The notes beneath the pieces are model-generated. The model made no database searches, had not been told where the DNA came from, and saw only the letters and a list, made by a program, of their open reading frames with translations. A DNA stretch of 64,000 nt from Octopus vulgaris (lineage: Eukaryota). A program made the position numbers and the translations under genes. Of the stretch, positions 58,849 to 63,768 are shown one piece after another; position 1 is the stretch's first letter, and every line of letters begins with the position of its first letter. The stretch covers positions 31,310,001 through 31,374,000 of the forward strand of contig OX597828.1 in the NCBI GenBank assembly GCA_951406725.2, in the 5' to 3' direction.

Positions 58849-60152
58849 ATGGGAACTACGGCCGGAGAAAACCTAATGCTGATAATGTTAATATGAAAAA
58901 AGACGTATATATAAATAATTGAGAAACTACACCATGAACATTATATCGTATGATCATCACATTTTCCACAGCTACTAATATTCCTCGGAAATTCTATGTT
59001 CCATTGGGTAAATAGTTCCCACCTTTGAAGTATGTATGGGAAATTCTTTAATCTCCATACAATAAAGTTTTCGTATTAAATACCAAGAAATTTAGTTGAA
59101 ATTATAGCAGCGCATACCACAGTTAATATTATGTAGTATATGAACTTTGTACGCACGTGTAGCACCGTTAGTAGGAATTGTAAAATTAACTAATATGATA
59201 ATTTTACTGAACTAGATTTTGATAGAATACTAAGCCCATAGTAATTCCGACTGTGATAATATCTTTGAGATAACACATGGTAATAATATTAATTACAATA
59301 CTGATAATAATCCTTTATTAACACCGTCTTCTGAGACGTGAATTCATATTAATTCCTGTAACCATGAGTACCACACAGATATGAATACATACCTTGTAAT
59401 TCCAATAGTATAATCACCTTCCTCTTAGAAAATCAGTGTTTAAGGGAAAATATAGGGAACATATAGTGTATCAATGCAAGGTCGTAGATATTATCACTTA
59501 GTTTCGTCTGATACATTTTGGAAATTTAGATTACATAATCATTCTCAAGCATTTAAATATTAGAGAAAATGTAATATTTGGACATGTTTATGTGATATCA
59601 AAGTCAGGAGCTTTAACTATGCGTTATAGTGGTCCGTTCTTATTTACACACAATCATAAAACACTGAGTTTTTCCATGTGAGTTTTGCTTTGAGGAAATA
59701 TATAATATAATTACTTATAAGTTGGTAATATTGAATTGGAAAGATAATTTTACATTGAAATGTTCTCGCTAATAATAGAAATTATTTCAACACTAAGTAA
59801 CCCATTAATTATAATTCCTTTCCATAGATCAAAACTATTCAGTAAATTTAATAGAGAGATAACTAATTGCCATGTGGTAGAATTTCTATGTTTATTTATC
59901 ATTCTTTCGTTATCTTCTGACGTCGTCAAATGTTACTACATACTAACTTTCCTTAGAACATTAAATCTCTTCTTAGCGTACTTTTTGTATTCGTTCATTT
60001 ATCAGAGATATTTAAATTTAACCAATTTTGGATTACTTTATTAATTTTGTTGGCATATACTAATTTGTCTGGTATTTTATAATTGCTTTTCTGTATCTAA
60101 AATACGTTGGAACAATAAAAACAACCGTTGGAAATGTAAGTATTCGTGTGTC

Positions 60153-60196
<44 letters not shown>

Positions 60197-60418
60197 TCAA
60201 TATAGGGTGGCAAAAAAAATTTTGTAGAATTCTTTTGCCACCAGCGGCCTAGTAGGAAAAAATTAAAATAGTCATAGACCATTTTTAAGTTCAACATCAA
60301 CAATAAAGGAACGGCCATAATAGGCCATTCACCCACTAGAAATAACAGCCGAAGCTTCAACCGCAAATAAAAGTTAATTCAGTAAACCAGGAGAAAATTT
60401 AAAAACATTTACCCTGTA

Positions 60419-60525
60419 ATTTCTTATACGATATACCGTTTCATCTGCTGATTAATGGTAAACTAACCTGATTAAATTAAATCAAGCCAATCTTCCACAG
60501 GCCCTCAGATTCTTCAGTAAGAAAT
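60419..60525 (-). ncRNA. Complete type I hammerhead ribozyme (left copy)
   Basis: Reverse complement of 61054-61160, with one difference inside the stem II extension. Confidence 0.9.
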
Positions 60526-61053
60526 AGCCCAAGACGGAACAGATATTTTCACGAGGCATTTCCGACGTTGCCAAGTTTATATCTGACCTAAAATTTTCAA
60601 ATCGTCGCACTCGCGCCAAATTTATCGGCAGCAAATAAATATAAGCCGTCGATTCCATTACGGAATTAACCAGAAAATTCATAATTAATCAATATAGGGT
60701 GGCAAAAAAAATTTTGTAGAATTCTTTTGCCACCAGCGGCCTAGTAGGAAAAAAATGAATGGCCTATTATGGCCGTTCCTTTATTGTTGATGTTGAACTT
60801 AAAAATGGTCTATGACTATTTTAATTTTTTCCTACTAGGCCGCTGGTGGCAAAAGAATTCTACAAAATTTTTTTTGCCACCCTATATTGATTAATTATGA
60901 ATTTTCTGGTTAATTCCGTAATGGAATCGACGGCTTATATTTATTTGCTGCCGATAAATTTGGCGCGAGTGCGACGATTTGAAAATTTTAGGTCAGATAT
61001 AAACTTGGCAACGTCGGAAATGCCTCGTGAAAATATCTGTTCCGTCTTGGGCT

Positions 61054-61160
61054 ATTTCTTACTGAAGAATCTGAGGGCCTGTGGAAGATTGGCTTCATTT
61101 AATTTAATCAGGTTAGTTTACCATTAATCAGCAGATGAAACGGTATATCGTATAAGAAAT
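61054..61160 (+). ncRNA. Complete type I hammerhead ribozyme (right copy) with extended stem II
   Basis: AUUUCUUA-CUGAAGA-AUCUG-[58 nt]-CAGAU-GAAA-CGGUAUAUCG-UA^UAAGAAAU. 8-bp stem I, 5-bp stem II base, near-palindromic stem III, GUA triplet; predicted cut after 61152. Confidence 0.9.
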
Positions 61161-61279
61161 TACAGGGTAAATGTTTTAAAATTTTCTCCTGGTTTACTGA
61201 ATTAACTTTTATTTGCGGTTGAAGCTTCGGCTGTTATTTCTAGTGGGTGAATGGCCTATTATGGCCGTTCCTTTATTGT

Positions 61280-61341
<62 letters not shown>

Positions 61342-61363
61342 ATTTATGTGCTATCTGCGTATA

Positions 61364-61420
61364 TTCCACTGATGAAGGCAAGGCATTTCTTATGCAGTGA
61401 CAGAAATCCGGGATCTGGAA
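61364..61420 (+). ncRNA. Type I hammerhead ribozyme of an older neighbouring element
   Basis: UUCCA-CUGAUGA-A-GGCA-AG-GCAU(UUCUU)AUGC-AG-UGAC-A-GAAA-UCCGGGA-UC^UGGAA. Stem I is UUCCA/UGGAA, the triplet is AUC, and the stem II base has one mismatch. Confidence 0.75.
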
Positions 61421-61646
61421 TTAACCAGTAAATTTTTGGCTAGTTTATTTTGTTTCTTTGTCTTCTCTTCTGGTTCTGTATGAACATTTAATGTGGTTTT
61501 TGAGTCAAGTGTTGGCTGTTATATCTAGCATGTTGATATCTCTTAGATACCCTTAATTATAATTCTAATAATGATTATTACCTCTTATTCCCAAGCTGGC
61601 CATCTGATAAGATCGGTATTTTAAATAACGAAATTATCCACAGAAT

Positions 61647-61831
61647 ATCTGACGTTAAGAGCGTAAAAGTGGATAAAAGAGAAACTTGGCGAGCAAAGGT
61701 CAAAGAGGGAGAGAGAGGGGGAAAGAGGAAGACAGGAAGGAAAGTAATGGGAGAGAGAAATCTATCTATCTATCTGTCTATCTATATATACATATATATA
61801 TATGTATTTATTATTTATATAATACATATAC

Positions 61832-63421: not shown

Positions 63422-63768
63422 ATCTCCCTATTTCTCTCTCTCCCTGTCTTTTTATGGCACCAATAATGGATCTTAATTTCCAATGTGAAAATTTTCTTGT
63501 CATCCGCATGTTAGCATTTCTAGTTTCTACTTTGAACATCAACGATTCTGGTACCAAATACTTCATGTCTTACATTTTCACTGCTTCTTGTCGATTCATT
63601 CCACGTGCACAAGGCCTCTATAAGTTCTTCACTCTCCAGAGAAGACTTAATATCTTACGTTAAGAATGGAAGATTGGATAAAAGAGACACTTGGGGAGCA
63701 AAGGTCAAACAGAGGGAGATAGAGGGGGTAAGAGGAGGACAGGAAGGAGAGTGATGGGAGAGCGAAAT
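61647..63768 (+). repeat. Pair of diverged ~115-bp purine-rich direct repeats (61647-61760 and 63652-63768)
   Basis: Shared acgttaaga...tggataaaagaga.acttgg.gagcaaaggtcaaa...gacaggaagga.agt.atgggagag.gaaat. Confidence 0.8.

Follow-up and report, generated by a model that had tools for sequence, protein, structure and literature searches.

The 64,000-nucleotide stretch of the Octopus vulgaris genome analysed here (the window) carries, at 60189-61283 between two (TA)n tracts, an insert of a young non-LTR retrozyme of a known kind: it consists of tandem units with one complete type I hammerhead each, lacks coding capacity, has a low GC content (36%) and is dispersed as a mobile family, of which hundreds of near-identical tandem and head-to-head non-coding copies are found genome-wide. 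The value of this family lies in its mechanistic read-out, not in its class. Given its youth (copies are 99% identical), the reaction that produced the copies can be read from the products, which reveal start sites that are fixed and paired, a class of arms running off at the ribozyme cut, and haplotypes that extend over whole loci. On the strength of these sequences, we postulate that the unit is probably inserted into (TA)n by a Penelope-like reverse transcriptase (RT)-endonuclease, which would prime on both strands and copy cut linear RNA as well as circular monomers.

The reference unit U (60756-61247) is 492 nt long and has its ribozyme sense on the plus strand; its start point is arbitrary, and the predicted RNA monomer runs from U398 round to U397. 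The left arm (60189-60754, minus strand; 1.15 turns) is the reverse complement of the unit from U70, at the inner junction, round to U143, the distal fixed 3' site, which lies against the left (TA)n tract (60154-60188; the tract runs to 60191, its last bases being common to the element end). The right arm (60756-61283, plus strand; 1.07 turns) starts at U1 at the inner junction, on the complement of 60331, comprises a single turn plus an exact 36-nt repeat of its own start, and ends at the proximal fixed site, U36, against the right tract (61284-61337; tract from 61282). The arms differ from each other at 60483/61096 and 60401/61178, with an additional junction base at 60755. No stop-to-stop frame in the insert exceeds 78 aa, the longest found, and a 61-codon frame in the unit is disrupted by length changes in a T run. 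Sequence comparison thus agrees with the first-pass annotation, which had described a 492-nt unit, a left arm of more than one turn, a reverse-complementary right arm starting at 60331 and finishing 36 bp past a full turn, about two differences between the arms, one complete type I hammerhead per turn, no credible protein and a (TA)n setting. Its remark that described monomers are mostly shorter does not hold, as the published retrozyme consensus lengths range from 51 to 972 bp and 492 nt is therefore not unusual. The 107 nt between the two fixed 3' ends (U37-143; 60792-60898, plus strand) contain hairpins at U47-67 and U90-126, and the ~107-nt spacing of U36 and U143 represents the 'tail' already described for Penelope elements. 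A motif common to sister families (61205-61243, plus strand) lies upstream of the proximal end and is a candidate binding site of the helper enzyme. The unit as a whole folds better than 100 of 100 shuffled sequences (z -4.29).

The hammerhead of the right arm (61054-61160, plus strand) is composed of an 8-bp stem I, a CUGAAGA core, a 5-bp stem II with a long arm, GAAAC, a short stem III and a GUA ending at 61152 (U397), after which the cut is predicted; one of the pairs predicted for its stem II arm is lost through a private change, G to C, at 61096. Its counterpart in the left arm (60419-60525, minus strand) agrees with the family majority. Hammerhead numbering at the level of the unit (N7) follows the usual scheme. 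The search of Rfam left the hammerhead unmatched and returned only microsatellite-driven and chance matches, hence the call rests on motif and pairing. The active fold is predicted to lie 1.7 kcal/mol above the lowest-energy fold, and a self-complementary decamer in the stem III/loop region (61141-61150, plus strand) is predicted to allow a dimer fold of two hammerheads (-10.2 kcal/mol). Only 2 single changes were found in the core among 427 monomer pieces, and propagated changes affect none of 11 core sites where about one would be expected; this conservation is not significant, and the changes are too few to speak for or against purifying selection on the core.

The genome searched comprises 2.8 Gb in 227 contigs. 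The right arm as query yielded 826 candidates (39 scored), while a 35-mer from stem II has 770 exact matches, or 804 when A/G alternatives are allowed, which corresponds to a family of ~800 units. We mapped 83 loci, a sample of several hundred: 39 from the right-arm search, another 18 (40 scored of 1481 candidates) and 26 motif-based loci that came, all on contig C1, out of the first 100 among 1175 motif matches. Long copies are overrepresented in the first two sets, whereas the third comes close to a census of those copies that carry the exact motif. As L050 and L051 have their junction and flanks in common, they were counted as one event. Divergence per turn in the first set is 0.27% within arms, 0.32% between arms and 0.60% between loci. 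Tandem arrays reach 21 turns with no ORF between the hammerheads, and no adjoining Penelope ORF was found at the 83 mapped loci, which bears on the earlier question whether the unit is ever attached to one. The view of a recently active, non-autonomous element is supported, and ~800 units, a divergence of 0.6% between loci and paralogous flanks that lack the insert mark a dispersed, mobile family. Individual copies have peculiarities of their own: the 21-turn array (C13, ~51.751-51.761 Mb; L069-L070) has an opposite arm of 96 nt, the T run at U113 becomes longer from turn to turn in an 8-turn arm at L079, gaining as much as 14 nt, and at L049 (3323-3504) the insertion is broken by ~180 nt of other sequence with a (GAT)n tract.

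In the window, the target was the internal (TA)n of an older dispersed repeat with a hammerhead-like core (61338-61639, plus strand; other side at ~60135-60153). This repeat (87-91% identity, 2370 candidates) also forms tandem and inverted pairs, and three of seven paralogues (L295-L297) have the same flanks round the tract and no insert. The anticipated empty (TA)n site is thus seen at paralogues, which are a proxy for the empty allele only. Only L047 is inserted outside TA, and there the duplicated target measures at least 8 bp. Elsewhere in the window, 61644-61761 and 63649-63768 are copies of a purine-rich repeat, 83-90% alike and ~2 kb apart.

Our mapping showed that the outer 3' ends of the 83 loci fall at U28-38 or U132-143, unlike the inner 5' ends, which are variable. 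Sixty of the 67 two-armed loci carry one end of each type and none carries a like pair; six have one off-site end, and one is cut by the fetch edge. Most single-armed loci (14/16) end at the proximal site, and 142 of 144 on-site outer ends abut (TA)n. These counts rule out free permutation of both ends. The first-pass annotation had taken the differently permuted arms for the footprint of a circle and had pointed to the permutation points as a check; this part of it is not supported, since variation is confined to the inner 5' ends and the outer ends keep to U36 and U143. Its idea of an insertion into (TA)n from both sides of a break is supported. Against the circle footprint also stands a coding Penelope-like element that keeps the same two-end rule: in a family of this genome encoding a 1312-aa protein, 14 of the 15 two-armed loci (among 39 examined) have unlike end pairs, the two ends lie 56 nt apart and (TA)n is also the target. 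The window family has the inverted, 5'-truncated arm, the two fixed 3' ends and the microsatellite target by which a Penelope-mobilised element is recognised. Inner junctions with short templated or repeated A/T-rich fills occur at L061, L086, L198-L200, L204 and L213. Such short templated fills are as in polymerase-theta-type end joining. Published work on Poseidon-Ac describes two internal start sites of the Penelope RT, the spacing of which equals the tail, together with cleavage of both strands and a predicted dimeric state of the enzyme (PMC11167929); the tail is often present at one end only (PMC8557442, PMC3846280).

The coding family (L119-L128) has intact Penelope-like ORFs of 1310-1312 aa in partial tandems, with a long Asn/Ser-rich insert in the N-terminal half, and its pLTR has an atypical hammerhead-like core. 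Pfam gave no match on the full 1312-aa protein and a sub-threshold RVT_1 on a fragment, and PDB returned nothing useful for it; the assignment to Penelope is based on visible motifs and on Atlas neighbours with GIY-YIG, RVT_1 and HTH_animal. A second family (L236, L241) has a 781-aa open frame with a C-terminal GIY-YIG and ends in (TA)n, and a simple scan of its 3' region detected no hammerhead. Our helper search covered the 1312-aa family (40 loci) and GIY-YIG loci (30, the 781-aa family included), and in neither set does the pLTR resemble U. Searches by motif returned only sister non-coding families, further U copies and apparent chance matches. Among the sisters, family B (L129-L153, L090:290-850) is built of tandem 559-nt units that align distantly with U but contain another hammerhead, and it has fixed ends ~97 nt apart at positions aligning roughly with those of U; of 21 loci, 8 have unlike pairs, none has a like pair and 13 have an off-site end, more than in U. 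Families C and D are non-coding, with units of ~550-560 nt, and the motif of 61205-61243 is found in B as well. Upstream of their proximal end, further non-coding families of ~550-560 nt (L260-L289, e.g., L267, L277 and L281) have in common a motif of 16 nt, the pattern of which has 579 matches. Possibly the ~550-560-nt families form one superfamily using one helper. The common motif was also considered as a coding remnant with a free third codon position, an idea that found no support, with 1175 A/G matches and only 6 with C/T against 2 in the control. A minus-strand hammerhead beside a U copy (L036:4690-4800) apparently belongs to a further Penelope-like family, and hammerhead and Penelope-like elements are seen at this locus to nest in one another's TA tracts.

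The inner 5' ends hold information on the templates, as they accumulate at U398-425, the stretch that immediately follows the predicted cut. Of the 46 arms in the census of contig C1, 20 end in this interval, compared with 3 at U370-397 and 3 at U426-453. Cut-site stops account for 18 of 39 arms on the first pass and for 16 of 161 on later passes (2/17 within the census), the background being 2.9% per 28 nt. A cut linear monomer predicts arms of at most 131 and at most 238 nt, and this is what we observe. These data suggest that many arms were copied from cut linear monomers; alternatively, the pile-up could mark places where the RT stalled, at stem I or a U/A tract, with no cleavage involved. 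As indirect evidence on self-cleavage, the step in 5' ends at this site hints at germline cutting by the animal hammerheads of such elements. Likely, the templates were of two types, cut linear and circular.

The multi-turn copies carry the case for the circles. Variants fixed within a locus number 33 in 35 loci (141 monomers; eight or fewer homopolymer-edge sites left out), compared with a shuffle mean of 0.8 (maximum 5 in 500), and their presence in every turn of both arms favours one monomer copied repeatedly. All but one of 235 cut-site crossings are free of indels, the exception being a true indel. In 48 of 52 cases the same inherited allele is found in both arms; of 202 scorable variants, 58 are fixed in both arms, 9 of them private, and 49 loci resolve into 23 partly nested haplotypes. 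Hence, the variants common to every turn of both arms and the seamless crossings would favour a circle, and a passage through one monomer followed by re-expansion would most simply be accounted for by RT moving round it. Length alone is no such sign: the first-pass annotation had read more-than-unit arms as a circle footprint, and linear multimers could also yield them. Indeed, all templates may have been linear, the insertions being driven by a Penelope-like enzyme from cut monomers and from partly cut or uncut multimers, with the arrays homogenised and lengthened at the DNA level. In line with this, later-pass stops at the cut site are 3.6-fold above background (16/86 stops, p 5e-5) and a second pile-up of 5' ends lies at the U90-126 hairpin (12/87), which suggests that folded linear multimers fit these stops better than a circle; a non-fixed variant is common to both arms at L039, L042, L054 and L055, the template of which was therefore not a single monomer; variants recur in non-adjacent turns of the 21-turn array, which probably reflects DNA-level exchange; C122G is non-fixed in 5 loci of one haplotype; the longest arrays are among the two commonest haplotypes; and Li et al. 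favour local tandem expansion (10.64898/2026.07.22.740005). Taken together, the later-pass stops, the hairpin pile-up, the four loci and the repeats of the 21-turn array imply that linear multimers and DNA-level exchange probably contribute. However, without circles the 23 haplotypes and the 9 private alleles found in both arms would need many separately homogenised masters, most non-fixed variants are confined to a single turn (79 single-turn and 13 intermediate, next to 34 fixed), and equal cutting everywhere predicts ~46% stops on each pass rather than the 10% seen. We therefore consider the mixed model, with circles, the probable one, and purely linear templating unlikely, though a serious contender.

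Other explanations fare worse. Tandems could in principle be made by template switching, the RT leaving one cut monomer at its 5' end and resuming on another at the 3' end, as cut monomers were apparently common templates and short templated jumps are seen at inner junctions, but such jumps are hardly credible next to the indel-free crossings, and a mixed pool would give mosaics instead of arms that agree. That a coding Penelope-like element has this unit as its pLTR, the copies being 5'-truncated stubs, is very improbable: the geometry of the ends is identical to that of the coding family, and the 83 loci were mapped out of several hundred, yet arrays of up to 21 turns have no ORF between hammerheads, no Penelope ORF adjoins at any of the 83 and the 61-codon frame is disrupted by the length of the T run. 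For the multi-turn copies this reading is already refuted. Finally, assembly is difficult where long inverted repeats adjoin (TA)n, but an assembly or chimera artefact has a negligible chance, because the layout recurs in 60 loci with different inner junctions; besides, the arms in the window differ at two sites, both carry the private T473C, and paralogous flanks lack the insert.

Under the mixed model, tandem copies would be transcribed and the RNA cut after U397, probably as hammerhead dimers, as the 5'-end pile-up suggests, and part of the monomer pool would be ligated into circles. A helper enzyme, possibly a dimer, would then nick both (TA)n strands and prime one cDNA from U36 and the other from U143, which matches the fixed, paired ends observed. 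On cut monomers the RT would run off near U398-425, giving the observed length classes of 100-240-nt arms, and on circles or uncut multimers it would go on for up to several turns. The two cDNAs meet head to head, the point of joining differing between loci and often bearing a short templated scar. The stem II 35-mer, in addition, shows A>G in 34 units (11 sites) versus T>C in 8 units (17 sites), a count in which units within arrays are not independent; at the locus level the ratio is 4 to 0 (p 0.04, post hoc). Over the whole unit an A-to-G excess was rejected (9 vs. 7, not significant). Such a bias would be expected from A-to-I editing and equally from selection for G-U pairs, and either implies passage through ribozyme-sense RNA. 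We tentatively extend the mixed model, with somewhat more doubt than conviction, to a Penelope RT dimer that would hold a single circular ribozyme RNA at two fixed sites 107 nt apart, prime from both strands of the cut TA tract and roll round the circle, the RNA sometimes being A-to-I-edited; all turns in the two arms would then derive from one RNA molecule. If so, rolling-circle reverse transcription, hammerhead cleavage in vivo and the asymmetric use of the two Penelope start sites would be recorded in these loci on the scale of a population. The 492-nt substrate, with its exact predicted starts and stops, would allow the Penelope tail, the inverted arm and copying round a circle to be examined in vitro.

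In L1 twin priming, both target strands prime and an inverted 5' arm results, the second priming site being variable; here, the second site is fixed and both arms can exceed one unit. The plant-type LTR retrozyme has a type III hammerhead, two LTRs and a 4-bp duplication, in contrast to the type I hammerhead and tandem units found here and to the duplication at L047. An autonomous Penelope, with an ORF for RT and GIY-YIG between pLTRs, was not seen at the 83 loci. Insertion of animal retrozymes by Penelope-like enzymes, and circles as their template, have both been proposed in print, a direct demonstration of either being absent from the accessible literature that we searched. This literature, in which few subscription journals are covered, yielded no description of a cephalopod retrozyme and no mapping of retrozyme insertion ends; the available texts of the metazoan retrozyme papers (PMC7229834; 10.64898/2026.07.22.740005) report no head-to-head geometry or end mapping, and that of PMC7229834 mentions octopus, cephalopod and 'inverted' zero times each.

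The window family resembles the metazoan non-LTR retrozymes in its non-coding tandem units with one type I hammerhead each, its GC content below 45%, its 492-nt length inside the 51-972-bp range and the co-occurrence of Penelope-like elements. It differs in a stem II arm of ~60 nt and a motif that Rfam misses, and its circles are predicted, whereas theirs were shown by northern blot. With regard to cleavage, 8 of 9 Xenopus retrozymes did not cleave in vitro (10.64898/2026.07.22.740005), and uncut RNA was the main substrate of anole Poseidon in vitro (PMC11167929). Chlamys elements such as MRC1 (PMC8557442) are likewise non-autonomous Penelope derivatives with multicopy head-to-tail insertions; unlike unit U, most are without canonical hammerheads, and they resemble an autonomous partner at the 3' end, while we found none such here. 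In insertion geometry the family resembles the EN+ Penelope-like elements (PMC8557442, PMC3846280, PMC11167929), with which it has in common the head-to-head arms, the variable 5' ends, the two fixed 3' ends, the tail on one side and the microsatellite targeting. It differs from them in having no ORF and in a tail of ~107 nt, compared with the published 30-40 nt and the 56 nt of the local coding family. Moreover, the pairing of the ends is strict in the octopus genome, whereas Poseidon-Ac showed no strand difference in start site in vitro (PMC11167929).
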